A DNA stretch of 64,000 nt from an uncultured Alphaproteobacteria bacterium (GCA_902605135.1 CACLBK010000001.1:38583-102582), one strand, 5' to 3'; positions 6,096 to 64,000 are shown, counted from the first letter of the stretch. Notes: a model not told the origin generated them from the sequence alone. Numbers and translations: made by a program.

Positions 6096-6203
6096 ACATT
6101 TTTTTACTATATCTGCTTGACTTTATTGTAATCAATTAATAAAGACCCATACGATTTGTTAGAGGTCGTGGAGTAAAATCCAAACACTTAACTAAAGGAT
6201 AAA

Positions 6204-6575: not shown

Positions 6576-6577
6576 AT

Positions 6578-7048: not shown

Positions 7049-7054
7049 ATATAT

Positions 7055-28406: not shown

Positions 28407-29297
28407 ATGAAAATAGGTATTGATGTAGGCGGTACCAAAACTGAGGGTATTCTTCTAGATCCAAATGGAGCTGAAATAGATAGAAAAAGAATTAATACTG
28501 AAAAAAGTTATGATGGAACAATTAATGGAATACTATCCATTATAAATTACTTTGAAGATAAACATGGCAAAGCAGAGTCTGTTGGTATGGGAATGCCTGG
28601 GGCTATATCAAATGATACAGCTCTAATCAAAAATGCTAATTCTATATGGTTAAATGGTAAACCATTTAAGCAAGATTTAGATAAAATTCTTAATAGAAAA
28701 ATTAATATAGAAAATGATGCTAATTGTTTTACACTCTCTGAAGCAGTAGATGGAGCAGGTAAAGGTCATCAAGTTGTTTTTGGAGTAATTATTGGAACGG
28801 GAGTTGGTGGGGGTATTAGTATTAACCAAAAAGTTATAAGAGGGCGAAATAGTATAAGCGGGGAGTGGGGTCATATAGTACTGCCAGGTAGAACTGAAGA
28901 AGAAAAAAAATATGTAAAAAAATGTTATTGTGGGAAAAATGGTTGTTTAGAAACTTACATATCTGGTCCAGGATTTTCATCAGCTTATAACTTGCGTTTC
29001 AACAAAAACTATAATTCACATCAAATATTAGAGGGTTTTATTAATAATGAAGAAAATAGTATTTTTGCGCTTAATCAATACATTGATCATTTAGCTAGAG
29101 GTTTATCTGTGGTATGCAATATCCTTGATCCAGATGTAATCGTTTTGGGAGGTGGCATGTCCAATATAGATTTTATTTATAAAAATATAAATGATACTCT
29201 AAAAAAATATGTTTTTACTGATACACTAGAAACTAAAGTTATTAAAAATGTTTATGGCGATTCAAGTGGCGTAAGAGGTGCAGCTTGGCTTTCTTAA
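28407..29297 (+). CDS. ROK-family sugar kinase (NagK/Mak-like)
   Basis: 296 aa with GIDVGGTKTE, ENDANC, the zinc motif CYCGKNGCLETY and a C-terminal GVRGAAWL. Confidence 0.8.
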   Translation: MKIGIDVGGTKTEGILLDPNGAEIDRKRINTEKSYDGTINGILSIINYFEDKHGKAESVGMGMPGAISNDTALIKNANSIWLNGKPFKQDLDKILNRKINIENDANCFTLSEAVDGAGKGHQVVFGVIIGTGVGGGISINQKVIRGRNSISGEWGHIVLPGRTEEEKKYVKKCYCGKNGCLETYISGPGFSSAYNLRFNKNYNSHQILEGFINNEENSIFALNQYIDHLARGLSVVCNILDPDVIVLGGGMSNIDFIYKNINDTLKKYVFTDTLETKVIKNVYGDSSGVRGAAWLS

Positions 29298-30745
29298 ATA
29301 CCACCCATTGAAATATATTTTATAGTTAAATAATCATCAAGACCATAACGAGAACCTTCTCTTCCCATTCCTGATTCTTTAACTCCACCAAAAGGAACTT
29401 CCGCAATTGTTGGTAATCCATTGTTAATAGATACAATTCCATACTCAAGTGCTTCAGCAACTCTCCAAATTCTTCCTATGTCTCTTGAATAGAAATATGA
29501 AGCTAATCCGTACGGTGTATCATTAGCCATTTTAATCACTTCATCATCACTTGAAAATTTATAGAGAGGAGCAACAGGTCCAAATGTTTCTTCAAAAGTT
29601 ATTTTTGCCTTTGTAGATACATTTGAGAGAACAGTCGGTTGATAGAAATTCCCACCTAGTGAATGCACATCTCCACCAATTGCTATTTTAGCTCCTGTGT
29701 TAACTGCATCTTTGACATGATCGATTACTTTCTCTAAAGAGGATTGATCAATTAAAGGACCAGATACAATTCCATCATCAAGTCCATTACCCACTGTTAT
29801 TTTACTGACTTCATTTGTAAATTTTTCAAGGAATTCATCATAAATATTTTCATGCACAAATATTCTATTTGAACAAATACATGTTTGACCACTATTTCTA
29901 AATTTACTTTGTAGAGCACCTGTAACAGCTTCATTCATATCTGCATCATCAAAAACAATAAAGGGTGCGTGACCACCAAGTTCCATAGAAACTTTTTTTA
30001 CTGTTGAGGCACTTTGCTCTAAAAGTATTTTTCCAACCTCGGTAGATCCTGTAAAAGAAATTTTTCTTACAATTGGGTTACTTGTTAGCTCTTTGCCAAT
30101 TTCACTTGCCGATCCAGTTATTACATTAAATACACCATCTGGAAAACCGGCTTCTTTAGCAAGTACTGCTACAGCTAATGCAGAATATGGTGTTTGACTT
30201 GCAGGCTTAACGACTGTCGTACAACCAACAGCAAGAGCAGCTGCACATTTTCTTGTGATCATTGAATTTGGAAAATTCCATGGAGTTATTGCTCCTACAA
30301 CACCAACTGGTTGTTTAATTATAACAATTCTTTTTCCAGGTCTTGGATCAGGAACTATATCACCATAAACTCTTTTTGCTTCTTCAGCATAGAATTCAAT
30401 ATATGAAGCGCCCATTAGTATTTCACCCTTTGCTTCAGCCAGAGGTTTACCTTGTTCAATAGTCATGATTTTAGCTAAATCATCTGCATTTTCAGTAATG
30501 AGCTCTCCCCATTTTTTTAGAATAACTGATCTTTCTTTCGCTGTAGTTTCTTTCCAAGTTTGAAAAGCAGTATTAGCATCATCTATAGCTTTTTTAGTTT
30601 CTGAAACTGAGCATTTTGGGACATAGCCAATCATTTCAAGAGAGGCTGGATTATTGACCTCAAGAGTTTTACCTGAAGAACTGTCAACCCATTCCCCATT
30701 TATAAAACATTTTTGTTTAAAGAGTGATTTGTTATTTAATTCCAT
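29294..30745 (-). CDS. gabD: Succinate-semialdehyde dehydrogenase-like NAD(P)+ aldehyde dehydrogenase (GabD/DoeC-like)
   Basis: 483 aa with ALDH motifs ELGGHAP and GQTCICSNR. Confidence 0.82.
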   Translation of the reverse strand: MELNNKSLFKQKCFINGEWVDSSSGKTLEVNNPASLEMIGYVPKCSVSETKKAIDDANTAFQTWKETTAKERSVILKKWGELITENADDLAKIMTIEQGKPLAEAKGEILMGASYIEFYAEEAKRVYGDIVPDPRPGKRIVIIKQPVGVVGAITPWNFPNSMITRKCAAALAVGCTTVVKPASQTPYSALAVAVLAKEAGFPDGVFNVITGSASEIGKELTSNPIVRKISFTGSTEVGKILLEQSASTVKKVSMELGGHAPFIVFDDADMNEAVTGALQSKFRNSGQTCICSNRIFVHENIYDEFLEKFTNEVSKITVGNGLDDGIVSGPLIDQSSLEKVIDHVKDAVNTGAKIAIGGDVHSLGGNFYQPTVLSNVSTKAKITFEETFGPVAPLYKFSSDDEVIKMANDTPYGLASYFYSRDIGRIWRVAEALEYGIVSINNGLPTIAEVPFGGVKESGMGREGSRYGLDDYLTIKYISMGGI

Positions 30746-48061: not shown

Positions 48062-48966
48062 TTTTTACTACTAATAAAAGAAGCAGACAATAAACTTATT
48101 ATTACAATAGAAGCCCCAATTATTTGATAGGTTGCTAAATTTTCCTTTAATAAAAAAACTGCGCCAAGAACACCCACCACAGGCTCTAAATATAAAAATA
48201 AAGCTGTATATGATTGACCAATTTTTGGGATAGCTATTAATTGTGACAACAGTGCCAAACTATAACAAATTGAAGGAATTAAAATTAAAAGATAAATGCC
48301 GATATCAAAATTAAAATTTAGAGAAAAAAATATTTTTAATATTACAAAAAAGAAAATAGTATTAAAAACATTTATAAATATATTTATTGGTATAGGAGAT
48401 ATCCCTCTTAATGACATTTTTTGATTTGTTACAATCATGCTTGTAGCTCCAAGAGAAGCTAGAAAAGCTAAAAAAATGCCTAATAAATTTATTACTTTAA
48501 AAGATGGACCTAAAACTAAAATAATCCCTAAAAATGTTAAAAAAAAAAGAATTTTTACAGCTAAATAAATTTTTTCTTTATCAACAATAATTGAATATAG
48601 AAGTACATATATTGGATAAAGACAAAAAATTAGGATAGTAAGGCTAACATCGATAAATACAACTGAAGTTAATAATCCTAGAGTTAAAAATATTGAACCA
48701 ACTGATATTGATAAAAAGTAATATATATTTTTTTTAAAATTACTAAGAAGATTTTTTTGAAAAGGTATAAAAGGTAATATTATAATTGAAGCAACTGCAT
48801 ATCGTAAAAATATAGCTAAACCTACTGATGCACCTGCATTATAAGCTATTTTAGTAGTAGGCCCAATTAAGCCAAATAAAATTCCGGCAACTAAAGCAAA
48901 AATAACACCAAATATGAACATTTTTAAAATTAACTTTTGACTATTTGGTTTCGTCCAGTTATTCAA
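48058..48966 (-). CDS. EamA/DMT-superfamily transporter
   Basis: About 10 TM segments in two EamA-like halves. The start is uncertain: TTG 48966 or ATG 48921. Confidence 0.8.
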   Translation of the reverse strand: MNNWTKPNSQKLILKMFIFGVIFALVAGILFGLIGPTTKIAYNAGASVGLAIFLRYAVASIIILPFIPFQKNLLSNFKKNIYYFLSISVGSIFLTLGLLTSVVFIDVSLTILIFCLYPIYVLLYSIIVDKEKIYLAVKILFFLTFLGIILVLGPSFKVINLLGIFLAFLASLGATSMIVTNQKMSLRGISPIPINIFINVFNTIFFFVILKIFFSLNFNFDIGIYLLILIPSICYSLALLSQLIAIPKIGQSYTALFLYLEPVVGVLGAVFLLKENLATYQIIGASIVIISLLSASFISSKN

Positions 48967-48987
48967 GCATCATTACAAATATTTAAT

Positions 48988-50076
48988 ATGAATAATCCAT
49001 CTCAAAGTTTCGTAAAATTTGAAAAGATTGATAAAAGTTACGATGGAGAAGTTCTTGTAGTTAAAAACTTAAATCTAGATATAGCGAAGGGTGAGTTTGT
49101 AACCATGTTGGGCCCTTCGGGATCTGGAAAAACAACAACTTTGATGATGTTAGCTGGATTTGAAACACCTACAAATGGTGAAATATTTTTAGATACTAAA
49201 CCAATAAGTAAAATACCTCCTTATGAACGAGAAATTGGAATGGTATTTCAAAACTATGCTCTATTTCCTCACATGACAGTTGAAGAAAATTTATCCTTTC
49301 CTTTGGAAGTGAGAAAAATACCAAAACCCGAGACAAAAGAAAAAGTACAGAGGGCACTTGATATGGTTGAGCTTGGTAATTTTGGTACCAGATTTCCCGC
49401 ACAATTATCTGGAGGTCAACAACAGAGAGTTGCTTTGGCTAGAGCTCTTGTCTTTGAACCACGTTTGGTATTAATGGATGAACCTCTCGGTGCTCTTGAT
49501 AAAAATTTACGTGAACAAATGCAATATGAAATAAAACATATTCACGACAGAATAGGAATTACAGTGGTATATGTTACACATGATCAAAGTGAAGCGCTAA
49601 CAATGTCAAACAGAATAGCTGTATTTAATGACGGAGTTGTTCAACAATTATCGACACCAGATATTTTATATGAAAAACCTGAGAATTCATTTGTTGCTAA
49701 ATTTATTGGAGAAAATAATACTCTTAACGGAGTGGTAAGAGATGTTAATGGAGATACATGTACAGTCGAACTTGATAATGGATTTGGAAAAGTAAAAGCA
49801 TTAAAAGTTAACGTAAATGATAAAGGTGATAAAACTCAACTTTCAATAAGACCAGAAAGAGTTACTATTGACAGTACAAATCCAGAATCAAATAATTTTG
49901 AAGGTAAGATACAAGAACTAATATATTTAGGTGATCATATTAGAGCAAGATTAAACGTTTGTGGAAATGATGAATTTATTGTGAAAGTTCCTAACGAAGG
50001 TAGTTTTAGTCATAAAGAGGGAGACTTATTAAATCTAAGCTGGAATCCTGATGATGTTAGGGCTCTCGACATTTAG
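48988..50076 (+). CDS. ABC transporter ATP-binding protein (PotA/polyamine-opine type)
   Basis: Track ORF 48937 is trimmed to the ATG at 48988. It has Walker A GPSGSGKTT, the signature LSGGQQQRVALARAL, Walker B LVLMDEPL and a C-terminal TOBE-like domain. Confidence 0.9.
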   Translation: MNNPSQSFVKFEKIDKSYDGEVLVVKNLNLDIAKGEFVTMLGPSGSGKTTTLMMLAGFETPTNGEIFLDTKPISKIPPYEREIGMVFQNYALFPHMTVEENLSFPLEVRKIPKPETKEKVQRALDMVELGNFGTRFPAQLSGGQQQRVALARALVFEPRLVLMDEPLGALDKNLREQMQYEIKHIHDRIGITVVYVTHDQSEALTMSNRIAVFNDGVVQQLSTPDILYEKPENSFVAKFIGENNTLNGVVRDVNGDTCTVELDNGFGKVKALKVNVNDKGDKTQLSIRPERVTIDSTNPESNNFEGKIQELIYLGDHIRARLNVCGNDEFIVKVPNEGSFSHKEGDLLNLSWNPDDVRALDI

Positions 50077-50207
50077 ATTTAAAAATATCCATATATTTAG
50101 CTCTTTTTTTTTTATTTTTAAGCCTTTTTTTTAATTAAGCTACATGTTATTACTAAGTCATTACGGACATAATCTTAAGATTAATTAATTAAAATAGGAG
50201 GATCTAT

Positions 50208-51311
50208 ATGTCTAAATTTACAAAAGCCTTCTTATTCGCATCTATCATTTTTGCGCCGTTTGCAGCTAATGCTGTAACTGTTGCTTCATGGGGTGGTGCT
50301 TATACAGAAAGTCAAAAAAAAGCATATGCTGATACATATTCTGACCCAGGTTCAATCGTTTTTGAAAACTATAACGGTGGTTTGGGTGAAACAAGAGCGC
50401 AAGTTGAAAGTGGAAACGTAACTTGGGACTTAGTTGATGTATTACCAGCTGATGCTATTACTGGTTGTGATGAAGGATTATTTGAAGATATTTCAAGTGA
50501 AATTGCATCAATGGGTGTACCAGGACCTGACGGAGAATCAATTGCTGAAGATATGGAAGCTAATGGTCTTAACTACCACTCTGGTTGGGATTGTTGTGTA
50601 CCACAAATTTTTTGGACTTACGTAGTATTCTATGACCCAGATGCTTTTCCAGGAGAAAAACCTGATAGTATGGCTGACTTCTTTGACGTGGAAAAATTCC
50701 CAGGAAAAAGAGGTATCCACACTTGGGCTGATGGAATTATTCAAAAAGCTCTAGTTGCAGATGGAGTTGCTCCAAATGCAGTACCTACAGTTTTTGCAAA
50801 TCAAACTGGTGCAATTGACAGAGCATTTGAAGTAATGGATAAAATTAAAGATCATGTTGTATTCTGGTCTGCAGGTTCACAACCTCTTGAGTTAGTTAAA
50901 AGTGGTGAAGTTGTAATGGCTGTTGCTTATAATGGTCGTGTTGGTGCAGCTAACCTTGCTGAAGGAGAAAACTTTGAATATATTTGGGAAGGACAAGTTC
51001 TAGACCAAGAATATTTATGTTTAACAACTGGAGCTCCTAATAGAGAAGCAGCTCTTGATTTTATGATGCATGCATCTAGCCCTGCTTCGCAAGCTGAACA
51101 GGCAAAATATATTACTTACGGACCAATGAGAGCTTCTGGTATTCCTATCATTGAAGCAAATGAGCCTTGGGGTCCTGGAGGAGTAGATATCATGCCTCAT
51201 ATGCCTAACACTCCTGAGCGTCTAAAAGTCTCTATCGTTAATGATCCACAGTGGTGGTCAGATAATGGTGCAGAAATTAGCGAGCGTTATTCAGCGTGGA
51301 TGGGTAACTAA
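50208..51311 (+). CDS. Periplasmic substrate-binding protein (PotD/PotF-like family)
   Basis: 367 aa with the signal peptide MSKFTKAFLFASIIFAPFAANA. A strong SD (AGGAGG) lies upstream. Confidence 0.85.
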   Translation: MSKFTKAFLFASIIFAPFAANAVTVASWGGAYTESQKKAYADTYSDPGSIVFENYNGGLGETRAQVESGNVTWDLVDVLPADAITGCDEGLFEDISSEIASMGVPGPDGESIAEDMEANGLNYHSGWDCCVPQIFWTYVVFYDPDAFPGEKPDSMADFFDVEKFPGKRGIHTWADGIIQKALVADGVAPNAVPTVFANQTGAIDRAFEVMDKIKDHVVFWSAGSQPLELVKSGEVVMAVAYNGRVGAANLAEGENFEYIWEGQVLDQEYLCLTTGAPNREAALDFMMHASSPASQAEQAKYITYGPMRASGIPIIEANEPWGPGGVDIMPHMPNTPERLKVSIVNDPQWWSDNGAEISERYSAWMGN

Positions 51312-51342
51312 GCTTGATAATTTAAATTTACTATTTTAATAT

Positions 51343-51374
51343 AAAGGCGAGAATTTCTCGCCTTTATTTATTTT
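51343..51374 (+). terminator. Intrinsic terminator between the binding-protein gene and the permease genes
   Basis: A 9-bp stem pairs AAAGGCGAG with CTCGCCTTT around a 5-nt loop, followed by ATTTATTTT. Confidence 0.7.
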
Positions 51375-51385
51375 AGGAGGATTGT

Positions 51386-52651
51386 ATTTCTACTTCAGCA
51401 TTACTTACAACGGACGGAATTCCTTTAAAGCAAAGTTTAAAAAAAGCTGAGCGTAAAAATAAAATAAGGGCATTTTTATTAGTTTTTCCTCTATTACTTT
51501 TTATAATCGTTACATTTGTTATGCCAATTGGTGATATGCTTTTTAGAAGTGTAGATGACAGTCAAATCAATGGTGTATTTCCAAATACTTTTAACGAATA
51601 TAAAAAATGGGATAAAGAAAAAGACGAACTGCCACCAGAAGAAGTTTATAAAGCTCTTTTTGAAGAACTTGCTTATGGTGAGAAAATACAAATTGGAAGA
51701 GCGTTAACTCGCATGAACTATTCAAAATCAGGTTGGAAAAGTCTGATTAAGACAACTTCTAGAGAAATTAAAAAAGCTGTAAAAAAAGATGAACTTCCAA
51801 ATAATTATAAAGAATTTTTGATTACCGCTAATGAAAAATGGGCCGACCCAACTTTTTGGTATGCAATGGGGCAGATGGTTAATGATACTACACCTATTTA
51901 TTATTGGAACGCTCTTGATAGAACTTATGACCAAGATCAAAATGTTGTCATGCAAGATGAAAAAAGACGAATTTATATAAAAACTTGGATAAAGACCTTA
52001 AAAATAAGCGTTTATGTTACAATTTTTTGTTTAATTCTTGGTTTCCCCGTAGCTCATCTTCTTGCAAATTTACCATTAAGATACAGTAATCTTCTAATGA
52101 TTTTTGTTTTACTTCCATTTTGGACATCACTTTTAGTTCGAACTACTGCTTGGATTGTTATGCTTCAACAAAATGGAGTAATAAATGGAATATTGGTATG
52201 GTTAGGTATTTTGAGTGATGATGGTCGATTACAATTAGTTTATAATGAAACAGGAACTTTAATTGCCATGACACAAATATTGTTACCATTTATGATACTT
52301 CCTTTGTATAGTGTGATGAGAGTTATACCTAAAAGTCATATGAGAGCAGCACAAAACTTAGGGGCTAAGCCTGCCACTGCTTTCTGGAGAGTATATCTAC
52401 CGCAAACTATTCCTGGCATGAGTGCAGGTGGATTATTAGTTTTTGTATTAGCAATTGGATATTTTATTACTCCTGAATTAGTCGGTGGTAAAGATGGAAA
52501 ATTAATTGGTCATTGGATTGCTTATCATCTTAAAACAACTTTAAACTGGGGTTTATGCGCTGCTTTAGGCGCAATTCTTCTTGGTGTAATGCTAATATTT
52601 TATTGGCTTTATAATAAAATAGTTGGCATAGACAATATTAAGTTAGGATAA
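51386..52651 (+). CDS. ABC transporter permease (PotB-like) with a large extra loop; probable ATT start
   Basis: The reading frame is open from 51377, and the upstream in-frame sequence encodes KKAERKNKIRAFLLVFPLLLFIIVTFV (basic stretch plus TM1) ahead of the first ATG (51521). AGGAGG lies 5 nt before the ATT at 51386. The EAA-loop is AAQNLGAKPATAFWRVYLPQTIPG. Confidence 0.78.
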   Translation: MSTSALLTTDGIPLKQSLKKAERKNKIRAFLLVFPLLLFIIVTFVMPIGDMLFRSVDDSQINGVFPNTFNEYKKWDKEKDELPPEEVYKALFEELAYGEKIQIGRALTRMNYSKSGWKSLIKTTSREIKKAVKKDELPNNYKEFLITANEKWADPTFWYAMGQMVNDTTPIYYWNALDRTYDQDQNVVMQDEKRRIYIKTWIKTLKISVYVTIFCLILGFPVAHLLANLPLRYSNLLMIFVLLPFWTSLLVRTTAWIVMLQQNGVINGILVWLGILSDDGRLQLVYNETGTLIAMTQILLPFMILPLYSVMRVIPKSHMRAAQNLGAKPATAFWRVYLPQTIPGMSAGGLLVFVLAIGYFITPELVGGKDGKLIGHWIAYHLKTTLNWGLCAALGAILLGVMLIFYWLYNKIVGIDNIKLG

Positions 52652-52654
52652 TTT

Positions 52655-53551
52655 ATGGCACTACCAAGTTACGCAACTCCAGTACAAAGAACTTACTACT
52701 ACGCCTATTTATTTTTTTGCGCAGTAGTTTTCTTTTTTTTAATTGCACCTTTATTTGCTATTATTCCAATATCTTTTAGCGTTTCACCATTTATGGTTTT
52801 TACAGAAGGAATGCTTGCATGGCCTCCTGATCCAGAAGCGTGGTCTTTAAGATGGTACAAAAACATGATAGGCGATTGTAGTGCTGATGTTGTTTCTTCT
52901 ACAGTTCCTTGTTCAACAAAATGGATGAAAGGTACAGTAAATAGTTTTTACATCGGTACTATAGCAACTGTTATTGCAACTGCTTTAGGTACTTTAGCAG
53001 CTTTAGGTTTGAGCAGACCTCATATGCCATACAAAGGATTAATAATGGCAATCTTAATCTCACCTATGATTGTTCCATTAATTATCACAGCTGCAGGCAT
53101 GTTTTTCTTTTATGCTAGAATAAACCTAGTTTATACATTTACAGGAGTAATATTGGCTCATGTAGCTCTTGCAACACCATTTGTTGTAATAACTGTAACT
53201 GCTACATTAGTTGGTTTTGATATGAACATGGTAAAAGCAGCACAAAGTCTTGGTGCAAAACCAATTAGAACATTTTTCAAAGTTATTATGCCATTAATTT
53301 TGCCAGGTATTATATCTGGAGCTTTGTTTGCTTTTATAACTTCTTTTGATGAAGTAGTTGTAGTTATGTTTATGGCAAGTATCGATCAATTAACAATACC
53401 TAAACAAATGTGGGCTGGAATACGTCAAGAAATAAGTCCCGTTATATTATGCATGGCAACATGCTTAGTTTTACTCTCAATCTTTTTATTAACTACAGTT
53501 GAGCTCCTTAGAAGAAGGTCTGAAAAACTCAGAGGTATTAAAGCTCGATAG
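52655..53551 (+). CDS. ABC transporter permease (PotC-like)
   Basis: 298 aa with 6 TM segments and the EAA-loop AAQSLGAKPIRTFFKVIMPLILPG. Confidence 0.88.
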   Translation: MALPSYATPVQRTYYYAYLFFCAVVFFFLIAPLFAIIPISFSVSPFMVFTEGMLAWPPDPEAWSLRWYKNMIGDCSADVVSSTVPCSTKWMKGTVNSFYIGTIATVIATALGTLAALGLSRPHMPYKGLIMAILISPMIVPLIITAAGMFFFYARINLVYTFTGVILAHVALATPFVVITVTATLVGFDMNMVKAAQSLGAKPIRTFFKVIMPLILPGIISGALFAFITSFDEVVVVMFMASIDQLTIPKQMWAGIRQEISPVILCMATCLVLLSIFLLTTVELLRRRSEKLRGIKAR

Positions 53552-54902: not shown

Positions 54903-56069
54903 ATGAAATTTGGATATTTTTGTAATACGACTAATTGGAAACACAAACCATTTAATCAATTATTAGAAGAAGCAAGAGAAATATCAGCTTTTTGTGATGA
55001 AAATAATTGGGATTCAATTTGGTTTACAGAGCATCATTTCAATCATGAAGGCATGGAGTCTTGTACTAATCCTCTGATGATGGGAACAGATGTTGCCGCA
55101 AGAACAAAAAAAATAAAAATTGGACAAGCATGTAATGTAATAACTTTTCATAATCCTATCCGTCTAGCTGAAGATATAGCTTTTTTAGACCAATTATCTG
55201 AAGGCAGAGTAGAGGTTGGAATTGGAAGAGGTGTATACGGAAGAGAAGCAATAAATATGAATAAAGAGGCCGATCTTAAAGATCAAGCAAAAAACTTTAG
55301 ACTATTTGAAGAGACATTAAGCATAATGAAAAAAGCTTGGACAGAAAAATTCTTTAATCACAAAGGAGAGTTTTACACTTATCCTGCACCAAACTTTAAA
55401 TGGCAACATGATATGAGTCCACCAAATGAAGAGTTCTTGGACATAGATACTAATGAAGTAAAAAAAATTAGCATTGTTCCAAAACCATTTCAAAAACCTC
55501 ATCCAGCAATCTGGCAAGTTGTTGATAGCCCCTCGTCAATAGAGTGGGCAGCCGCAAATGGAATAAATACTATAATGTGGATACCTACTGTTAAAGCACT
55601 CAAGAAAAGATTTCTACTCTACAAGGAAGCAAAATCAAAAGCTGAAAACCGAGAAGTTCCTCTTGGAGAAGGTATCTGTCTTGTTAGAGATATGTTTATA
55701 GCTGATACAATGGAGGAAGCTGAAAAACTTGCTGGAGAACATATAGTAAATTATATGCGTTGGGTTTGTCACTGGCGAGGTTTAGGTAATCATATGGACC
55801 CAGGTGAAATACTTCCAGAAACTGATCATAAATTAGATTTATTAAATTATGATTTTTTACATAAAAGAAATTTACTTTTTGGAACACCGGAATACGTGGT
55901 TAATAAAATTAATGAATTAAAATCAGAATTAAATCTCCAAAATTTACAAGTTTGGTCAAACTTTCCAGGAATTGACCATGAAGCATGTATGAGAAGTATA
56001 AAATTATTTACAAACGAAGTAATGCCGAAAATAAAAGTTGATGAATCAAATATTCAAATTGCCAGCTAA
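54903..56069 (+). CDS. LLM-class (luciferase-like) flavin-dependent monooxygenase
   Basis: 388 aa starting MKFGYF, with WFTEHHF and the TIM-barrel LLM pattern. Confidence 0.85.
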   Translation: MKFGYFCNTTNWKHKPFNQLLEEAREISAFCDENNWDSIWFTEHHFNHEGMESCTNPLMMGTDVAARTKKIKIGQACNVITFHNPIRLAEDIAFLDQLSEGRVEVGIGRGVYGREAINMNKEADLKDQAKNFRLFEETLSIMKKAWTEKFFNHKGEFYTYPAPNFKWQHDMSPPNEEFLDIDTNEVKKISIVPKPFQKPHPAIWQVVDSPSSIEWAAANGINTIMWIPTVKALKKRFLLYKEAKSKAENREVPLGEGICLVRDMFIADTMEEAEKLAGEHIVNYMRWVCHWRGLGNHMDPGEILPETDHKLDLLNYDFLHKRNLLFGTPEYVVNKINELKSELNLQNLQVWSNFPGIDHEACMRSIKLFTNEVMPKIKVDESNIQIAS

Positions 56070-56071
56070 TA

Positions 56072-56659
56072 ATGGAATTGAAGTTACGTAAATTTAATAA
56101 ATTTGTAGATAAAACTTTCATCGAAGGAGGAAAAGAGGCTAAGGATCCAGTGCTACTAGTTTCTGTAGCAGCAGTTTTTGAAAATCCCTGGAAAGATAAG
56201 GGATTTGTTGAAGATTTAAAACCTATAATTTTAGATCTTGCACCAAAATTAGGTGCTATTCTTGTCCCTGAACTTGTAAAAGAAATAGGCACACCAGAAA
56301 AAATTTTAGCTTATGGGAAAGCAGGTATTGTAGGTTTAAATGGTGAAATTGAACATGCTTCAGCTTTTATACATACTCTTCGGTTTGGTAACATTTTTAG
56401 AGATGCCGTAGGTGGAACTTCTTATTTAAGTTTTACTAATACTAGAGGTCCTGCTGGATCAAAAATTTCAATTCCTATGATGCACAAAACAGATGCTGGT
56501 CTAAGACCTTATTATTTAACACATGAATTTACAATTCACGATGCTCCATTTGATAATGAAATTGTAATCGCTATTGGAGGAGCAACAACAGGTAGAGCTC
56601 ATGCTAGGACTGGTGATAGATATCAAGATATGAAAGAAATGGGTATAGAGCCAAAATAA
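56072..56659 (+). CDS. 'Amino acid synthesis' family protein (DUF1185/AA_synth), function unknown
   Basis: 195 aa. The N-terminal IEGGKEAKDPVLLVSVAAVFENPW and C-terminal GGATTGRAHAR blocks match my memory of this family. Confidence 0.72.
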   Translation: MELKLRKFNKFVDKTFIEGGKEAKDPVLLVSVAAVFENPWKDKGFVEDLKPIILDLAPKLGAILVPELVKEIGTPEKILAYGKAGIVGLNGEIEHASAFIHTLRFGNIFRDAVGGTSYLSFTNTRGPAGSKISIPMMHKTDAGLRPYYLTHEFTIHDAPFDNEIVIAIGGATTGRAHARTGDRYQDMKEMGIEPK

Positions 56660-57442
56660 ATGTTAAAGAATTTTGATAAAAATCAAAATTATTATAAATT
56701 TTATAAAAGAAAAAATATTCCTATAGTTTTTATTCATGGTGTTGGTCTGGATCATGAAATGTGGTTTCCTCAAATTAGATCTTTTAAAAATAATTCAATT
56801 TTAGTCTACGACTTATTAGGACATGGAAAAACACCACTAAATAAAAAAAGTGTTAATTTTGAAGATTTTTCAAAACAATTAAATAATTTGTTAAATAATT
56901 TAAATATTAAAAAAATAAATCTTGTAGGTTTCTCATTTGGTTCTTTAGTTGCTCTAAATTTTGCTAAAAAATATCAAAAAAAAGTTAATAAATTAATTTT
57001 AATATCTACTGTTTTTAAAAGAGATAATTTGGAAAAATATAACGTCAGAGAAAGATACAAAAAAGCAAAGAAAAATATACCAATATCTAATTTGGCTTTA
57101 AAAAGATGGTTAAGTCCTAAATTTATTAATAACAACCCAAAGATAAAAAAATATATTTTAACTACTCTTAATAAAAAAAATAAAGATTATTTAAATTTTT
57201 TAAAATCATACAAACTATTTTCTTATTTCAAAGATAGTACAATGGAAATTAAAAAAATAAAAGTACCTTCTCTTGTTTTAACTGGTACAAAAGATCAAGG
57301 TTCTACAGTGAAAATGTCACAAAACTTATCAAAGGAACTTATTAACTCACAATTTTTTAAAATTACCAATGCTAAACACTTATGCAGTATTGAGTATTCC
57401 TCAAATGTAAATATGATAATAAAAAAATTTCTAAATACTTGA
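56660..57442 (+). CDS. Alpha/beta-fold hydrolase
   Basis: 260 aa with the oxyanion HG (FIHGVG) and the nucleophile elbow GFSFGS. It starts 1 nt after the upstream stop. Confidence 0.8.
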   Translation: MLKNFDKNQNYYKFYKRKNIPIVFIHGVGLDHEMWFPQIRSFKNNSILVYDLLGHGKTPLNKKSVNFEDFSKQLNNLLNNLNIKKINLVGFSFGSLVALNFAKKYQKKVNKLILISTVFKRDNLEKYNVRERYKKAKKNIPISNLALKRWLSPKFINNNPKIKKYILTTLNKKNKDYLNFLKSYKLFSYFKDSTMEIKKIKVPSLVLTGTKDQGSTVKMSQNLSKELINSQFFKITNAKHLCSIEYSSNVNMIIKKFLNT

Positions 57443-57443
57443 T

Positions 57444-58919
57444 ATGATACAAGAATATAAAATGTTCATTAACGGTGAATGGGTCAATTCATCATCAGAT
57501 AAAAAAATAGAAACACTCAATCCAGAAAATAATGAAGTTTGGGCTTCTGTACCAGAAGCAAATGATCAAGATGTTGATTTTGCAGTACAAAGTGCACAAA
57601 AAGCTTTTGATAGTTCTTGGTCACAACTACACCCACGTGAAAGAGCTAAATATTTACGATTAATAGCAAATGAATTACGAGAGAATGCTGAACATCTTGG
57701 TAAAATTGAAACTATTGATACAGGGAAGTTATTTCGTGAAACAAAGACACAAGCTAATTATATTGCAGAGTATTATGATTACTTTGCAGGACTTGCAGAT
57801 AAAGTTGAGGGAACTGTTATACCTATTGATAAAGAAGATATGCAAGTTACAACTACTAGAGTGCCAATAGGAGTAGTGGCTGCAATTATTCCTTGGAATT
57901 CTCAAATGCTTCTTACAGCTGTAAAATTGGCTCCAGCTCTAGCTATGGGAAATACTGTTGTCATTAAAGCATCTGAATTAGCACCAGTTACACTATTAGA
58001 ATTTGCTAAACTTATTGAAAAAACGGGAATGCCAAAAGGAGTTGTTAATATTATAACCGGTCTAGGAGATCCTTGTGGGAAAGCATTAACACAACACCAT
58101 TTAGTCGAAAGGATTGCTTTTACAGGTGGACCTGAAACAGCAAGGCATATTGTAAAAAATTCATCATATAATTTGTCTCAAGTAAGTCTAGAACTTGGAG
58201 GAAAAAGTCCAGTAGCAGTCTTTGATGATGCTGATCAAGAAAATGCACTTAATGGAATAACTGCAGGTATATTTGGTGCTAGTGGTCAGAGTTGTATTGC
58301 AGGATCAAGATTATATATTCAATCATCTATCTACGAGATATTTCTAAACAAACTAATAGATAAAGCTAAAAAAATAAAATTAGGACCACCTATGTCAGAT
58401 GAAACACAAATGGGACCTTTGAATAGTCTTAAGCAGCTTGAAGTAATTGAAAAAAATATAAATGATACTGTTCAACAAGGCGGAGTAATAAAGTGTGGTG
58501 GAAAAAGATCCTCTTTATCTAATAAAGGATATTATTTTCCTGCAACTATCATAGAATGTGAAAATCATAATTTACCTACAGCAGAAAATGAATTGTTTGG
58601 CCCAGTTTTATCTGTGATGAAATTTGAAAAAGAAGATGAATTAGTAAACCTTATGAATGATAACAAGTATGGATTATCATCTGGTGTTTATACAAAAGAT
58701 TTGGGAAGAGGAATGAGAATTTCAAAAGCAATTAGAGCTGGAATAGTTTTTGTAAACACCTACCGTTTAATTTCTCCAATGGCACCATTTGGAGGTATGA
58801 AAGATAGTGGATATGGCAAAGAGGCAGGTCAAGAATCAATAAAAGAATATACCAGAGTAAAAACTACTTGGTTTAATGCTTCTCGAAAACCAATGAGTGA
58901 TCCTTTTACTATGGGTTAA
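57444..58919 (+). CDS. NAD(P)+ aldehyde dehydrogenase
   Basis: 491 aa with ELGGKSP and GQSCIAGSR. Confidence 0.9.
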   Translation: MIQEYKMFINGEWVNSSSDKKIETLNPENNEVWASVPEANDQDVDFAVQSAQKAFDSSWSQLHPRERAKYLRLIANELRENAEHLGKIETIDTGKLFRETKTQANYIAEYYDYFAGLADKVEGTVIPIDKEDMQVTTTRVPIGVVAAIIPWNSQMLLTAVKLAPALAMGNTVVIKASELAPVTLLEFAKLIEKTGMPKGVVNIITGLGDPCGKALTQHHLVERIAFTGGPETARHIVKNSSYNLSQVSLELGGKSPVAVFDDADQENALNGITAGIFGASGQSCIAGSRLYIQSSIYEIFLNKLIDKAKKIKLGPPMSDETQMGPLNSLKQLEVIEKNINDTVQQGGVIKCGGKRSSLSNKGYYFPATIIECENHNLPTAENELFGPVLSVMKFEKEDELVNLMNDNKYGLSSGVYTKDLGRGMRISKAIRAGIVFVNTYRLISPMAPFGGMKDSGYGKEAGQESIKEYTRVKTTWFNASRKPMSDPFTMG

Positions 58920-58924
58920 TATTA

Positions 58925-60358
58925 TTAGCTTAAGCTAATACCTACATTCTTAACTTGAAGATAAGATTTAAGTCCATCTACTCCTTTTTCACGGCTATAT
59001 CCTGATTGTTTATAACCTCCAAAAGGTGTTGCATGATTTCCGGTGAACCATTTATTTACATATACTTGACCAGCTTCTAATTTGCTTGCAGTCCAAGATG
59101 CTTTCTTAAGATCTTTAGTAAAAACTCCTGCACCTAATCCGTACTCAGTATCATTTGCAATATTTATGGCTTCCTCTTGATCTTCATATTCAAGAACTGA
59201 GAGTACTGGACCAAATATTTCTTCTCTGGCTACAGTCATATTTTGTTTAACATTGTTTAGAACAGTTGGTTCCATAAAATATCCTTCACGTTCTAATCTT
59301 TTTCCACCGTACGCTGCTTCTGCCCCTTCTTGAATTCCTGATCTTGCATAACCTTCAACTTTTTGTAGTTGATTTTCTGATATTACAGGAGTTAGGTCTG
59401 TATCTTTTTCTATACCAGGTCCAATTTTTAAAGATTTACTCATATCAACAAGCTTATCTACTAATTCATCTTTAATTGACTTATGAACTACCAATCTAGA
59501 CATCGCTGTACAAATTTGTCCTGCAACACTAAATATTCCTGAACGAGCACTTTCTAGAACTTCATTTAGATCAGCGTCAGGGTAAACAATACCAGCTGAT
59601 TTACCTCCTAATTCAACTACAGCAGGAATAGCTTTATCAGCACAAGCATGAAGTATTTTTTTTCCAGTAGCAACTGAGCCTGTAAATACTACATGATTTA
59701 CATCTTCATGAGATACAAGATAAGATCCTGCTTCATTGCCATATCCACAAATTATATTGATTAATCCTTCTGGCACATCAGCATTTTGTATTGCTTTTGC
59801 AAAAATTGTTGCTGACAAAGGAGTTAATTCTGCAGTTTTAATGATTGTTGAATTTCCAGTGGCAAATGAACAAGATAGTGATCTTCCAATCATTGATAAT
59901 GGGAAATTCCAAGGCACAACATGTGCCGATACACCAAAAGGTTCTAAAATTGTGTAATCAAAAACATTTTTTGCTACAGGTATTGTTTTACCTTCAAGTT
60001 TATCAGTTAAGCCAGCATAATAATCAAACATATCAGCTACATCATTGAACTCTTTAATTGCTGAAGCAATATTTTTTCCATTTTCATAACAAAGAAGCTC
60101 TCCTCCTTCTTTAGAAACTTTTCTTGTTTCTTCAGCAATCTTTCGCATAAGTTTTGCTCTCGAGAGTAAAGGCATATCTACCAGCACTCTGCTGTTATAA
60201 GAATTTTTAGCTGCTTCTACTGCAAGATCAACTTCATTTTTTTTTGCACATGAAATTTCACCAATGATTTTACCATTTGATGGATCATCAACCTTTATTG
60301 TTTCCTTGGACTCACTTTCAATCCATTTATTATTTACAAAATTCTTATATTTTTCCAT
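58925..60358 (-). CDS. NAD(P)+ aldehyde dehydrogenase
   Basis: 477 aa with ELGGKSA and GQICTAMSR. Confidence 0.9.
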   Translation of the reverse strand: MEKYKNFVNNKWIESESKETIKVDDPSNGKIIGEISCAKKNEVDLAVEAAKNSYNSRVLVDMPLLSRAKLMRKIAEETRKVSKEGGELLCYENGKNIASAIKEFNDVADMFDYYAGLTDKLEGKTIPVAKNVFDYTILEPFGVSAHVVPWNFPLSMIGRSLSCSFATGNSTIIKTAELTPLSATIFAKAIQNADVPEGLINIICGYGNEAGSYLVSHEDVNHVVFTGSVATGKKILHACADKAIPAVVELGGKSAGIVYPDADLNEVLESARSGIFSVAGQICTAMSRLVVHKSIKDELVDKLVDMSKSLKIGPGIEKDTDLTPVISENQLQKVEGYARSGIQEGAEAAYGGKRLEREGYFMEPTVLNNVKQNMTVAREEIFGPVLSVLEYEDQEEAINIANDTEYGLGAGVFTKDLKKASWTASKLEAGQVYVNKWFTGNHATPFGGYKQSGYSREKGVDGLKSYLQVKNVGISLS

Positions 60359-60397
60359 TTTCTGCGTTTTTTAATTAATTATTTTTGTTTCATTCTT

Positions 60398-60422
60398 TAT
60401 CATTTAGGATATGAAAATGATA
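60398..60422. repeat. Perfect 8-bp inverted repeat TATCATTT-N9-AAATGATA in a divergent control region (candidate operator)
   Basis: Read directly in the 84-bp spacer between the ALDH(-) gene and the GS-like(+) gene. Confidence 0.3.
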
Positions 60423-60442
60423 CAAATTTAATTTTAAGAAAC

Positions 60443-61801
60443 ATGAGTATTACATTCAATCAGTTAAAAAAATTAATAACAAAAAAAGAAATAGATACTG
60501 TTTTAGTTTGTGTATCAGATATGCAAGGTAGACTAAATGGTAAAAGAGTTACTGGAAAAGCCTTTATCGATTATGTTTATAAAGAAACACATATGTGTGA
60601 CTATCTCTATACTGTTGATATGGACATGTTTACTGTACCTGGATACAAATCTTCTTCATGGGAAACTGGTTATGGAGATATGACTGTAATTCCAGACCTC
60701 AAAACCATAAAGATAGCCAATTGGTTAAATAAAACAGCCATAGTGCTATGTGATTGTTTAGACCATTCTGGAAAAAAACCACTTATTCATTCAACAAGAC
60801 AAATATTAAAAGATGTTTTAGCTAAGGCCGACAAAATGGGATTTAAGTCTATGGTTGGTTCAGAATTAGAATTTTTTCTTTTCAATCAAACTTATGAAGA
60901 AATTCATAATAATAATTATACAAAATTTAAAGAATCTTCTTGGTATATTGAAGATTACATGATTTTCCAAACTACTAAAGAAGAAGATGTGATGCAGGAA
61001 TTAAGAAATTCCCTTCTAGATAGTGGAATTTACGTAGAATGTTCAAAAGGTGAGGCTGCTCCAGGGCAAGAAGAAATCAATGTTGTTTTTTCAGATGCAT
61101 TAAACATGGCTGATAATCATATTTTAATTAAAAATGCTACAAAAGAAATTGCTTATAAACATAACAAGGCTGTAACCTTTATGGCTAAATATAATAAAGA
61201 AGTTTGTGGAAGCTCATGTCATATTCATAACTCTTTATTTGATAAGAAAACAAATAAAAATATTTTCTATAACCCTAAGGACAAATATGGAATGTCTGAT
61301 ATTTTTAAAAGTTATCTTGCAGGACAAATAAAATTATTACCAGATATTTCTATTTTTTTAGCACCAAATATTAATTCCTATAAAAGATTCCAAGATGGAT
61401 CATTTGCTCCTACAAAGTCTGTTTGGGGAATTGATAATCGTACTGCTGGGTTTAGACTAGCTGGTCATGAATCATCTATAAGGATTGAATGTCGAGTCCC
61501 AGGTGCAGATGTTAATCCCTATCTTTCTTTTGCCGCTTTAGTTGGTGCTGGTTTATATGGAATTAAAAATAAACTTAAATTAGATAAGCCTTATTCAGGA
61601 AATATTTATGAGAAAAAAGTAAATGAAGTTCCTAAAACTCTTAATGAAGCAATTCAACTTGCTAAAAAATCTAAATTTTTAAGTGAGATATTTCCACAAG
61701 ATGTACTAGATCATTATATCCATGCCGCTGAATGGGAGCAAAAAGATTATGATGGTTCAGTTAATGATTGGCAATTACGAAGATACTTCGAAAGAGGCTA
61801 A
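60443..61801 (+). CDS. Glutamine synthetase-family gamma-glutamyl-amine ligase (PuuA/GmaS/GlnA3-like)
   Basis: 452 aa with the GS catalytic blocks ELEFFLF, GSSCHIHNS, NSYKRF, DNRTAGFR and ECRVPGADVNPYL. Confidence 0.86.
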   Translation: MSITFNQLKKLITKKEIDTVLVCVSDMQGRLNGKRVTGKAFIDYVYKETHMCDYLYTVDMDMFTVPGYKSSSWETGYGDMTVIPDLKTIKIANWLNKTAIVLCDCLDHSGKKPLIHSTRQILKDVLAKADKMGFKSMVGSELEFFLFNQTYEEIHNNNYTKFKESSWYIEDYMIFQTTKEEDVMQELRNSLLDSGIYVECSKGEAAPGQEEINVVFSDALNMADNHILIKNATKEIAYKHNKAVTFMAKYNKEVCGSSCHIHNSLFDKKTNKNIFYNPKDKYGMSDIFKSYLAGQIKLLPDISIFLAPNINSYKRFQDGSFAPTKSVWGIDNRTAGFRLAGHESSIRIECRVPGADVNPYLSFAALVGAGLYGIKNKLKLDKPYSGNIYEKKVNEVPKTLNEAIQLAKKSKFLSEIFPQDVLDHYIHAAEWEQKDYDGSVNDWQLRRYFERG

Positions 61802-61810
61802 TTTTATTTC

Positions 61811-63187
61811 ATGTTTGAGACTATCACTCCAATAGATAACTCTGTTTTACTTAAAAGAGATTATGCAACAGAAGAAGATATTGAAACAAGTCTCAGCAAT
61901 TCTTTTTCTGTTAGAAAACATTGGAAAAATATATCTCTAGAAGAAAGAAAAAAATCAGTTTTAAATTTTGTAGAAATATTTTTAAAGAACAAGAATGTTT
62001 CTAGTAATTTATGTAAACAAATAGGTAGGCCAATAGCGCAGTGCCCAGGTGAGATGCGAGGTTTTGAAGAAAGAGCTCGTTATATGATTGAAAATGCTGA
62101 AAGGGCATTATCAAGAGTAGTTTCAATCAAAAATGACGAATTTGATAATTACATAAAAAAAGAACCACTGGGAACTATATTTGTAATTGCTCCCTGGAAT
62201 TACCCTTTCAACACTTCTGTTAATTCGATTGTTCCAAGTTTACTTGCGGGTAATGCAGTTATATTAAAACATTCTTCTCAAACTCCACTTTGTGCTGAAG
62301 AATTATATGAGGCTGCTAAACAATCTTCATTACCAAAAGATATTTTTCAATATTTACATTTAAATCATGATCAAACATCAAGAATAATTTCCGATTCAAG
62401 AATTAATCATGTTTTATTTACAGGCTCTGTAAGTGGTGGAAAACAAATAAAGAAATCTATAGGCACTAGATTTATTGGAGCTGGTTTAGAGTTAGGCGGA
62501 AAAGATCCTGCTTATGTTAGGGCTGATTGTAATTTAAATCATGCTGTTGAAAATTTAGTTGATGGATCATACTTCAATTCTGGTCAATCGTGTTGTGGTA
62601 TTGAAAGAATTTATGTTGATAAAAAAATATACAATATATTTGTAGAAAAATTTAAAGATGTAACTGAGAAATATATTTTAGGAAATCCACTAGAGATGGA
62701 AACAAATTTAGGTCCAGTAGTAAAGCAATCTGCTGCAAATAATATTAGATCTGAAGTTAACAACGCAATTAGTCAAGGTGGAAAAAACATTATAGATAAC
62801 AAAAAATTTAATTTAGATGATGGTAATAATTGTTATGTAAGCCCAAGTGCACTCATCAATGTCGATCATTCGATGAAATATATGATGGAAGAAATATTTG
62901 GTCCTTCAGTTGGAATAATGAAAGTAGAAAATGAAAATGAAGCTTTATCGTTAATGAATGATAGTTCTTATGGATTAACAGCAAGTATTTGGACAAATGA
63001 TAAGTCTTTTGCAGAAAATTTTGGAAAAAATGTTGAAACAGGAACTTTTTTTATGAATAGATGTGATTATTTAGACCCTGGCTTAGCATGGACTGGTGTA
63101 AAAGATACTGGAGTTGGTGTTACCTTATCTGTCCTAGGATTTGATCATTTAACAAGAGCAAAAAGTTATCATATAAGAAATATTTAA
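61811..63187 (+). CDS. NAD(P)+ aldehyde dehydrogenase (short form)
   Basis: 458 aa with ELGGKDP and GQSCCGIER. Confidence 0.88.
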   Translation: MFETITPIDNSVLLKRDYATEEDIETSLSNSFSVRKHWKNISLEERKKSVLNFVEIFLKNKNVSSNLCKQIGRPIAQCPGEMRGFEERARYMIENAERALSRVVSIKNDEFDNYIKKEPLGTIFVIAPWNYPFNTSVNSIVPSLLAGNAVILKHSSQTPLCAEELYEAAKQSSLPKDIFQYLHLNHDQTSRIISDSRINHVLFTGSVSGGKQIKKSIGTRFIGAGLELGGKDPAYVRADCNLNHAVENLVDGSYFNSGQSCCGIERIYVDKKIYNIFVEKFKDVTEKYILGNPLEMETNLGPVVKQSAANNIRSEVNNAISQGGKNIIDNKKFNLDDGNNCYVSPSALINVDHSMKYMMEEIFGPSVGIMKVENENEALSLMNDSSYGLTASIWTNDKSFAENFGKNVETGTFFMNRCDYLDPGLAWTGVKDTGVGVTLSVLGFDHLTRAKSYHIRNI

Positions 63188-63191
63188 ATTT

Positions 63192-64000
63192 ATGAAAAAT
63201 ATAAATTGGAATTATCCTACTACAATCTGGTTTGGTGTTGATAGAATAATAGAAATACAAAAAGCTTGTGAAGAATTAAATATTCAAAAACCATTAATTG
63301 TTACTGATAATGGAATTTTAAAAACAAATATTATTAAAAAGTTAAATGATTGCTTAGATAAACACGCATTTATTTTTAGTGATGTTAAATCAAATCCTAC
63401 AGGTAAGAATGTCGAGGATGGTGTTAAAGTATTTAATGAAAATAAACATGATGGAGTAATAGCTGTTGGAGGAGGTTCAGGTATGGATACTGGAAAGGCA
63501 ATAGCATTCATGGCCAAGCAAAAAAGACCAATCTGGGATTTTGAAGATATTGGTGACTGGTGGACTAGAGCTAATGCAGATTCAATTTTTCCTATAATTG
63601 CTCTACCTACTACTGCTGGAACAGGTTCTGAAACTGGCAGAGCTTCAGTTTTTACTAATGAAAAAACACAAGAAAAAAAAATTATTTTCCATCCAAAAAT
63701 GCTTCCATCAATTGTTATCCTTGATCCAAATTTGACAATTCCACTCCCTGCAAATTTAACAGCCTTTACAGGAATGGATGCACTAGCTCATTGCTTAGAA
63801 GCATATTTGTCGAATATTTTCCATCCGTATTCTCAAGGTATTGCATTAGAGGGAATTAGATTAGTAAAAAATAATCTTGTTCTTGCATTTAATAATGGAT
63901 CAAATTTAGAAGCTAGATCGCATATGCTAGCATCTTCATCTATGGGCTCAATAGCTTTCCAAAAAGGTTTAGGTGCTATCCATTCTTTAAGTCATCCTGT
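63192..64000 (+). CDS. Iron-containing (group III) alcohol dehydrogenase, N-terminal ~269 aa (3' end outside window)
   Basis: Not in the ORF track because it has no stop in the window. My own translation reads MKNINWNYPTTIWFGVDRI...GGGSGMDTGKA...PTTAGTGSE...MDALAHCLE. Confidence 0.85.
   Translation, partial: MKNINWNYPTTIWFGVDRIIEIQKACEELNIQKPLIVTDNGILKTNIIKKLNDCLDKHAFIFSDVKSNPTGKNVEDGVKVFNENKHDGVIAVGGGSGMDTGKAIAFMAKQKRPIWDFEDIGDWWTRANADSIFPIIALPTTAGTGSETGRASVFTNEKTQEKKIIFHPKMLPSIVILDPNLTIPLPANLTAFTGMDALAHCLEAYLSNIFHPYSQGIALEGIRLVKNNLVLAFNNGSNLEARSHMLASSSMGSIAFQKGLGAIHSLSHP

Follow-up and report, generated by a model that had tools for sequence, protein, structure and literature searches.

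The 64,000-nucleotide stretch of DNA analysed here, hereafter called the window, derives from an uncultured Alphaproteobacteria bacterium (GCA_902605135.1 CACLBK010000001.1:38583-102582; G000:C1:38583-102582 in our numbering of genomes and contigs), has a GC content of about 30% and belongs to a genome that is 68% complete. At its end, the genes for a glutamine synthetase (GS)-fold ligase, an aldehyde dehydrogenase (ALDH) and a group-III iron-type alcohol dehydrogenase (Fe-ADH) form a three-gene operon (60443-64340), which probably encodes a gamma-glutamylation route for ethanolamine or a very similar amino alcohol. The pathway is a known one, present here as a lineage-specific variant. New are the lineage-wide failure to find the FGase-family amidohydrolase (PF05013) of the described pathway and the fact that neither the dedicated transporter nor the regulator was found in this strain. 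An earlier reading of the window, made from the sequence alone, had proposed a gamma-glutamylation route at this place and had taken the ADH to indicate a hydroxylated substrate. Both proposals agree with the orthology of the ligase/ALDH/Fe-ADH triad to the described route for ethanolamine, an amino alcohol, and all the genes that had been listed (the ligase, its flanking ALDHs, the Fe-ADH, a further ALDH at 57444, an oxidase and an importer) were confirmed. The members of the operon are the following:

60443-61801, plus strand: GS-fold ligase of 452 amino acids (PF00120, 331 bits), predicted gamma-glutamylethanolamide synthetase (ethanolamine gamma-glutamylase)
61811-63187, plus strand: ligase-linked ALDH of 458 amino acids (ALDH 61811), predicted gamma-glutamyl-aminoacetaldehyde dehydrogenase
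63192 to window-equivalent 64340, plus strand: group-III Fe-ADH (PF00465, PF25137), predicted gamma-glutamylethanolamide dehydrogenase

The three genes are co-directional and separated by 9 bases (ligase-ALDH) and 4 bases (ALDH-ADH). The Fe-ADH gene crosses the window end (64000) by 340 bases and, read onward on the contig, encodes 382 amino acids. In the proposed route, the ligase would use ATP to join ethanolamine to the gamma-carboxyl group of glutamate, the Fe-ADH would oxidise the alcohol group of the resulting gamma-glutamylethanolamide to gamma-glutamyl-aminoacetaldehyde, and ALDH 61811 would convert the latter to gamma-glutamylglycine. The described pathway ends with an FGase-family amidohydrolase that frees glycine and glutamate; in this lineage, the cleavage of gamma-glutamylglycine would fall to an enzyme from a different family, for which a gamma-glutamyltransferase (GGT)-family protein and a class-I glutamine amidotransferase (GATase)/C26-like protein are candidates. 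We infer the enzyme activities as well as the way in which the last step proceeds.

The identity of the ligase was assessed by comparison with protein families, structures and residues. A PDB search returned 11zs (513 bits) and 5dm3 (456 bits) as the top two matches by far, the best true GS scored 188 bits, and the glutamate-methylamine ligases 9qur and 7cql reached 125 and 99 bits, respectively. The 5dm3 protein is presumably Csal_0679, which in Chromohalobacter salexigens is the ligase of the ethanolamine route. On the NCBIfam models for the type III GS/GmaS (TIGR03105, 218 bits vs 469.6) and for PuuA (NF045547, 182 bits vs 650), the protein remains below the cut-off. A quick maximum-likelihood (ML) search with 84 rows placed it inside a clade of 78 rows (SH-aLRT 100) alongside the ligases of canonical loci, which carry an FGase, an RpiR regulator, a transporter, an ALDH and an ADH. 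Outside this clade are the GlnA proteins of E. coli and of the genome itself, E. coli PuuA and a GS-like paralogue that the genome encodes on contig C16. Within the clade, the window ligase forms a subgroup with the ligases of locus L012 and of the same-genus genomes G019 and G003, which is sister to 59 Pseudomonadota ligases; the Actinomycetota ligases (42-47% identity) make up a separate sister clade. Further relatives come from a 'Pelagibacteraceae bacterium' (77%) and an uncultured alphaproteobacterium (76%).

The fold of the ligase and the fact that GlnA is its top NCBIfam model by score would also suit an ordinary ammonia-assimilating GS. There is practically no chance that this is what the gene encodes. 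The score on the GlnA model (TIGR00653) is 242 bits, with a cut-off of 429, and the genome, which holds three GS-fold genes (GlnA on contig C24, the window ligase and the C16 gene), has a true GlnA scoring 664 bits. The residue comparison used the catalytic residues and numbering of Salmonella typhimurium/E. coli GS. Of the 14 metal, ATP and glutamate residues, 13 (E129, E131, E212, E220, G265, H269, H271, S273, R321, R339, R344, R355 and E357) are invariant in all 78 members of the ligase family; the remaining one, R359, is kept in 77 of 78. The flap residue Glu327 of the ammonium site is replaced by Phe in 67 and by Trp in 11 of the 78 members (F321 in the window ligase), the Asn264 position is occupied by Ala, Val or Cys (C255), and the Tyr179 position is variable (W167). 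Thus, the ligase neither groups with GlnA nor keeps the ammonium site: the tree split and the exchanges E327->F, N264->C and Y179->W argue against an ammonia-assimilating enzyme.

The two dehydrogenases were compared with hidden Markov models (HMMs), of which one was built from 43 ALDHs whose genes immediately follow the ligase gene in other genomes and the other from 51 ligase-linked Fe-ADH proteins. ALDH 61811 scored 648 bits on the ligase-linked ALDH model, E. coli PuuC 255 bits, and the other two nearby ALDHs of the window 262 and 251 bits, the latter being the divergent ALDH at 58925 (ALDH 58925). Moreover, ALDH 61811 fits 99 of the 110 conserved columns of the ligase-linked subfamily, and besides the catalytic Cys it has a second Cys (GQSCCG), which is invariant in the subfamily and is replaced by Ile or Thr in the other ALDHs compared here. 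The full-length Fe-ADH reached 589 bits on its model, fits 105 of 113 conserved columns and has all conserved Asp and His residues.

The genomic context of the triad was studied in 80 loci around ligase relatives of 42-76% identity. Open reading frames were clustered, named by Pfam and re-scored with cluster HMMs; 78 of the 80 loci were usable, L032 and L088 being excluded because the anchor frame was the wrong paralogue. Among the 61 loci whose downstream flank measures at least 3.6 kb, 46 show the co-directional order ligase, ALDH, Fe-ADH. The arrangement is more than chance, and the ALDH and the ADH are co-conserved neighbours of the ligase. Neither of the two outcomes that would have spoken against the sequence-only reading, a GlnA-type ligase or neighbours that are not conserved with it, was observed. 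For 42 triads with at least 6 kb upstream, an FGase-family protein was found near 32, an RpiR regulator near 33, an APC-type permease near 21 and a tripartite ATP-independent periplasmic (TRAP) DctQMP system of the EtoX type near 15. A DAO-family oxidase lies near the ADH in six of the 42, directly after it in five and about 2 kb further on the opposite strand in L017.

This arrangement is that of a described pathway. In PMC10132767, the locus MED193_10021-10056 of Phaeobacter sp. MED193 comprises RpiR, GGAH (gamma-glutamylglycine amidohydrolase), EtoVWX, ETAGA (ethanolamine gamma-glutamylase), GAADDH (gamma-glutamylacetaldehydeamide dehydrogenase) and GETADH (gamma-glutamylethanolamide dehydrogenase), and C. 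salexigens and A. tumefaciens are said there to have a matching pathway. PMC6529630 describes the same ligase, dehydrogenase and ALDH steps together with an FGase-family hydrolase for S. coelicolor. The hydrolase to be expected is therefore of the FGase family, according to these sources and to the Pfam-named loci, and not of the PuuD type, which the sequence-only reading had regarded as the lacking enzyme. The gap itself is real: no PuuD/C26-type gene was found in the window or over the next 6.2 kb of the contig past position 64000, the remainder of the contig also has no C26 gene, and an FGase was not found either. As for the history of the pathway, Vetting et al. 2015 reportedly described it in C. 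salexigens, with an EtoX of the Csal_0678 type, the ligase, an ALDH, an ADH and an FGase-type hydrolase.

The genomes of the lineage measure 1.1-1.6 Mb. Among the 28 genomes of the family that are at least 85% complete, 17 carry the ligase, all of them in genus g1, the genus of the window. In the order, 81 genomes reach a completeness of 80%, and 54 of them, spread over two families, carry the ligase (25 of 37 genomes in g1 and 28 of 34 in g9). In most genomes of the genus that were examined, the gene run is M24, DUF3726, a gene for a 554-amino acid protein, M19, EamA, ATP-binding cassette (ABC) importer, DAO oxidase, divergent ALDH, ligase, ALDH and ADH. In G019 and G003, genes for DctQ, DctM and DctP are placed between the divergent ALDH and the ligase, directly upstream of the latter, and the TRAP binding protein matches PDB 4uab (E 1.6e-129), which is presumably the ethanolamine-bound Csal_0678. 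In G002, G010 and G014, the triad is 93-96% identical, the divergent ALDH is absent, and an orphan SBP_bac_8 protein is encoded directly before the ligase; upstream are a paralogous Pot-like ABC importer and DAO oxidase, 38-65% identical to those of the window. The same stretch of these three genomes also holds genes for a Peptidase_Mx1-like protein and a cyclophilin (L123 = G010:C2, reverse-complement 793-9081; L114 = G002:C2). In G011 (L122, G011:C1 10988-15036), the order is DAO, divergent ALDH, ALDH and ADH, with a gap of 82 bases where the ligase would be expected. From this same-genus synteny (G011, G002, G010, G014, G019 and G003), it follows that the triad is the constant unit and that the divergent ALDH and the oxidase travel with the importer.

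Several observations weigh against an ethanolamine route. We infer the substrate from orthology, at identities of 42-55% (ligase), 44-52% (ALDH) and 48-56% (ADH). A long stem (1.06 changes per site) leads to the ligase clade of the window lineage, whose composition is skewed. The best NCBIfam models are those for succinic semialdehyde dehydrogenase (ALDH) and 4-hydroxybutyrate dehydrogenase (ADH), both below cut-off. An FGase was found in none of the 28 family genomes at least 85% complete and in only one of the 81 order genomes at least 80% complete, and this sole carrier (G033) is ligase-negative. RpiR, the APC permease and DctQ had no tblastn match in the window's own genome (68% complete), and an EtoX orthologue is present in only 2 of 16 ligase-carrying genomes of the genus. 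Furthermore, G011 has retained the ALDH and the ADH but not the intervening ligase, so that the two enzymes may function, or simply persist, on their own.

A search for an FGase also gave no match in the window's own genome (68% complete), in any of the 54 ligase-carrying genomes of the order or in the genome of L012. Among the ligase carriers is G052, a single contig rated 99% complete, in which no FGase was found. By comparison, four unrelated genomes with a triad and no FGase nearby all encode an FGase elsewhere (4/4). The transporter was searched for in the same manner. EtoX had no match in G000, where the identity of both TRAP binding proteins to EtoX is only 25-30%, and orthologues occur in 5 of the 28 family genomes, namely G019, G003, G001 (partial) and representatives of two genera without the ligase. 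The latter two orthologues are 85-92% identical (G022:C3:15571-16638 and G024:C1:143428-144495), and their genomes gave no ligase match at E 1e-100 or better. In this strain, uptake would thus not proceed through the TRAP EtoX system that two relatives of the genus carry at the same site.

That FGase, RpiR and EtoX were not found, that one genome of the genus (G011) has lost the ligase and that 12 of 37 genus genomes at least 80% complete gave no ligase match could also mean that the operon is a remnant of an incomplete pathway that is being lost. Such a decay is very improbable given that every ligase match among the 54 of 81 genomes, in both families, is an open frame free of internal stops, that ligase identity across the genus is 85-99% and that the catalytic residues are kept in all three window genes. 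Fragments of the genes also occur in seawater metatranscriptome contigs. In four studies, such contigs hold pieces of all four genes at 58925-64000, some of them at most 1% different. These data consist of contigs only, so that depth, strand and transcript ends are uninformative and the low cover at 60285-60454 and in other bins is meaningless, and RNA libraries can hold DNA; the fragments are consistent with expression and are no proof of it. The 84-base intergenic region upstream of the ligase (60359-60442) is the presumed promoter region of the operon, and the TRAP transporter genes of G019 and G003 are inserted at this position. Rfam returned nothing near the operon with E <0.4, and promoter-like and terminator-like sites did not exceed the shuffled expectation.

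The triad is conserved although no FGase was found in the ligase-carrying genomes of the order, whose pathway may therefore end with a non-homologous enzyme. For instance, the hydrolase could have been displaced non-orthologously by the GGT-family protein of the lineage, which we regard as a possibility, although a doubtful one. This protein of 528 amino acids (L127:1483-3069, minus strand) begins at the conserved domain; its N-terminus, read by eye, has no hydrophobic stretch resembling a signal peptide, and the protein would be cytoplasmic. It is encoded in 26 of the 28 family genomes and was not found in the window's own (incomplete) genome. Since its presence is unlinked to that of the ligase across the 28 genomes, it cannot be singled out as the hydrolase. 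The second candidate emerged from the PF07722 matches in the own genome, six open frames that align with nothing but the C-terminal portion of the model (starting near position 94 of 219). The C24 protein among them (C24:5459-6280) has 273 amino acids, fits GATase (PF00117) better than C26 and is 27% identical to PuuD over 125 residues. As it occurs in 24 of the 28 family genomes, with or without the ligase, this class-I GATase/C26-like protein is a candidate only and was not retained as the specific hydrolase. The final step is left without an assigned enzyme because both candidates are unlinked to the locus or to the presence of the ligase. A scan of the L012 neighbours for hydrolases returned nothing beyond an SBF transporter, a 3-hydroxyisobutyrate-dehydrogenase-like protein, a thioesterase and a further DAO, and of the papers listed for glutamylglycine amidohydrolase, judged by titles and the openings of abstracts, none deals with this lineage. 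L012 represents the other family of the order; its DAO-family oxidoreductase (L012:16875-18071, plus strand) is encoded about 5.5 kb downstream of the ligase and belongs to a different subfamily. A gene of the short-chain dehydrogenase/reductase family adjoins the L012 cluster, as it does in G019 and G003.

The genes upstream of the operon and the remaining features of the window that were considered are as follows:

29294-30745, minus strand: fourth ALDH of the window
48937-53551, plus strand: Pot-like ABC importer (ATPase, SBP_bac_8 binding protein, two permeases)
53499/53556-54785, plus strand: DAO-family flavin adenine dinucleotide (FAD) oxidoreductase (PF01266), 409 amino acids from the ATG at 53556
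54903-58919, plus strand: four-gene insert encoding a luciferase-like (LLM) monooxygenase, a PF06684 protein, an alpha/beta hydrolase (56660) and ALDH 57444
57444-58919, plus strand: ALDH of the insert (ALDH 57444)
58925-60358, minus strand: betaine-aldehyde-dehydrogenase (BADH)-like ALDH of 477 amino acids (ALDH 58925; NCBIfam BADH is the best model, below cut-off)
60359-60442: divergent intergenic region of 84 bases upstream of the ligase

Downstream of the Fe-ADH, a convergent galactarate-dehydratase-like gene is followed by sugar and inositol genes. Amid the latter lies a gene for a TauD-family dioxygenase (L003:8355-9431, plus strand; window-equivalent 69772-70848), whose best models are those for 2-trimethylaminoethylphosphonate dioxygenase (306 bits, cut-off 400) and gamma-butyrobetaine dioxygenase (260 bits).

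The window thus contains four ALDHs, as had been noted before. With most of the genes on one strand and within 15 kb, it is tempting to see one large module reaching from the importer to the ADH, in which three ALDHs take part, the DadA-like oxidase plays the role of PuuB and the alpha/beta hydrolase frees glutamate; the sequence-only reading had drawn the locus in this way. We consider such a module highly improbable. The insert 54903-58919 is missing at the site in 12 genomes of the genus, its genes have no match in the 16 other ligase-carrying genus genomes that are at least 85% complete, and elsewhere they occur only in G004 (at the same site), G001 and G011, while G012 retains an ALDH remnant of 100 amino acids. 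The insert is strain-variable; since they lie inside it, the alpha/beta hydrolase and ALDH 57444 are outside the pathway, and the release of glutamate cannot be assigned to the former as had been suggested. BLAST detected no similarity of the oxidase to E. coli PuuB, and on the DAO HMM the former reaches 305 bits and the latter 37, so that the PuuB-like role is not borne out. Nor is it a constant member of the module, as it stays with the importer in ligase-less G011 and is replaced in G002, G010 and G014. ALDH 58925, which reaches 445 bits on the BADH model, adjoins the oxidase in G011 and is not beside the triad in G002, G010 and G014; it probably belongs to the importer/oxidase block rather than to the triad. 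Finally, a real Puu-type module is encoded elsewhere in the genome. On contig C16, the GS-like ligase gene (minus strand) lies amid genes for the agmatine deiminase AguA, the N-carbamoylputrescine amidase AguB and PotFGHI (L118:6378-14703), the oxidase of this module is 37% identical to E. coli PuuB, and no PuuD was found nearby before the contig end. Judged by its gene content, the C16 module is a separate Puu-type polyamine route and the second gamma-glutamylation module of the genome.

The DAO-family oxidase itself is glycine/sarcosine-oxidase-like or DadA-like. The D-amino-acid dehydrogenase model stays below cut-off, the best PDB matches are glycine/sarcosine oxidases (E 1e-11 to 1e-15), and, over its length, the protein has 30-33% identity with the oxidases whose genes come immediately after that for the ADH in five Paracoccaceae loci; an FGase is present in three of these loci. 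In the simplest reading, the enzyme would possibly convert glycine to glyoxylate after the pathway. As a DAO flavoprotein recurs next to the triad, one may also imagine that a glycine-oxidase-like enzyme cleaves gamma-glutamylglycine oxidatively at the C-N bond of glycine, yielding glutamine and glyoxylate with no need for a hydrolase. If this were true, the nitrogen of ethanolamine would pass straight into the amide of glutamine. However, such a reaction is most unlikely, and the replacement of the hydrolase by the DAO oxidase is unsupported.

The importer upstream of the oxidase is the nearest candidate uptake system. Its ATPase scores above the cut-off of the polyamine-type model TIGR01187, and the permeases are PotB/PotC-like. 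The binding protein (50208-51311) has no NCBIfam match; its best PDB match is 8jv1 ('spermidine/putrescine-binding', 240 bits), followed by gamma-aminobutyric acid (GABA)-, mannopine- and agropine-binding proteins. The importer block is conserved upstream in L109-L113 and L122. Thus, the triad could perform the same chemistry on another substrate, such as aminopropanol or a different hydroxylated amine, which would be taken up by the ABC importer and processed with the help of the DAO oxidase and ALDH 58925. In accordance with this idea, EtoX was not found in 14 of the 16 ligase-carrying genus genomes, a Pot-like importer and a DAO lie upstream of the triad in two non-identical versions (the window type and that of G002, G010 and G014), members of the same oxidase subfamily are encoded after the ADH in the five Paracoccaceae loci, and the ALDH and ADH of the genus fall into two types that are 72-75% identical, the flanking genes being 85-92% identical. 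Nevertheless, we consider another substrate rather unlikely: the closest relatives of the triad in the genus are wired to an EtoX orthologue, the ABC/DAO/divergent ALDH block persists in ligase-less G011, and the oxidases share only 30-33% of their residues with the Paracoccaceae ones. The preferred reading is therefore still that of a route for ethanolamine or a close analogue.

Ethanolamine is released in the sea from phosphatidylethanolamine. If the route works, the lineage would obtain glycine and glutamate from a lipid head-group, an advantage for oligotrophs in which reduced nitrogen and glycine are scarce, and an enzyme cleaving gamma-glutamylglycine would remain to be found. The catalytic core of the pathway is present in a marine lineage with small genomes, and the textbook transporter, regulator and final hydrolase were not found at the locus or in the strain. 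The annotation of the ligase as 'glutamine synthetase' by automatic pipelines hides this core. According to PMC10132767, etoX occurs in about 5-10% of ocean bacteria, and 19% of the matches belong to the Pelagibacterales.

The operon can be compared with several known systems. It shares a GS-fold amine ligase with GmaS and the type III GS, but the window ligase is below cut-off on TIGR03105 and matches 9qur and 7cql weakly. As in the Puu pathway of E. coli, an amine would be gamma-glutamylated, its far end oxidised to an acid and the product hydrolysed. Unlike E. coli, the window would use an NAD-type Fe-ADH acting on an alcohol, whereas PuuB is a flavoprotein acting on an amine; moreover, PuuA groups with the C16 GS-like protein, and there is no PuuD at the window locus. 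The proposed steps are the same as those of S. coelicolor GlnA4 with SCO1611, SCO1612 and SCO1615, a likeness that concerns the steps as described in PMC6529630. The closest counterpart is the pathway of C. salexigens and Phaeobacter. The order differs from it in that no FGase-family hydrolase was found in any of the 54 ligase-carrying genomes searched, the window genome in that no RpiR, EtoX or APC permease was found, and the window in having a Pot-like ABC importer, a DAO oxidase and a divergent ALDH upstream. In common with the C. salexigens/Phaeobacter pathway, the window has an orthologous ligase, ALDH and Fe-ADH, encoded in the same order and orientation and with their catalytic residues intact.

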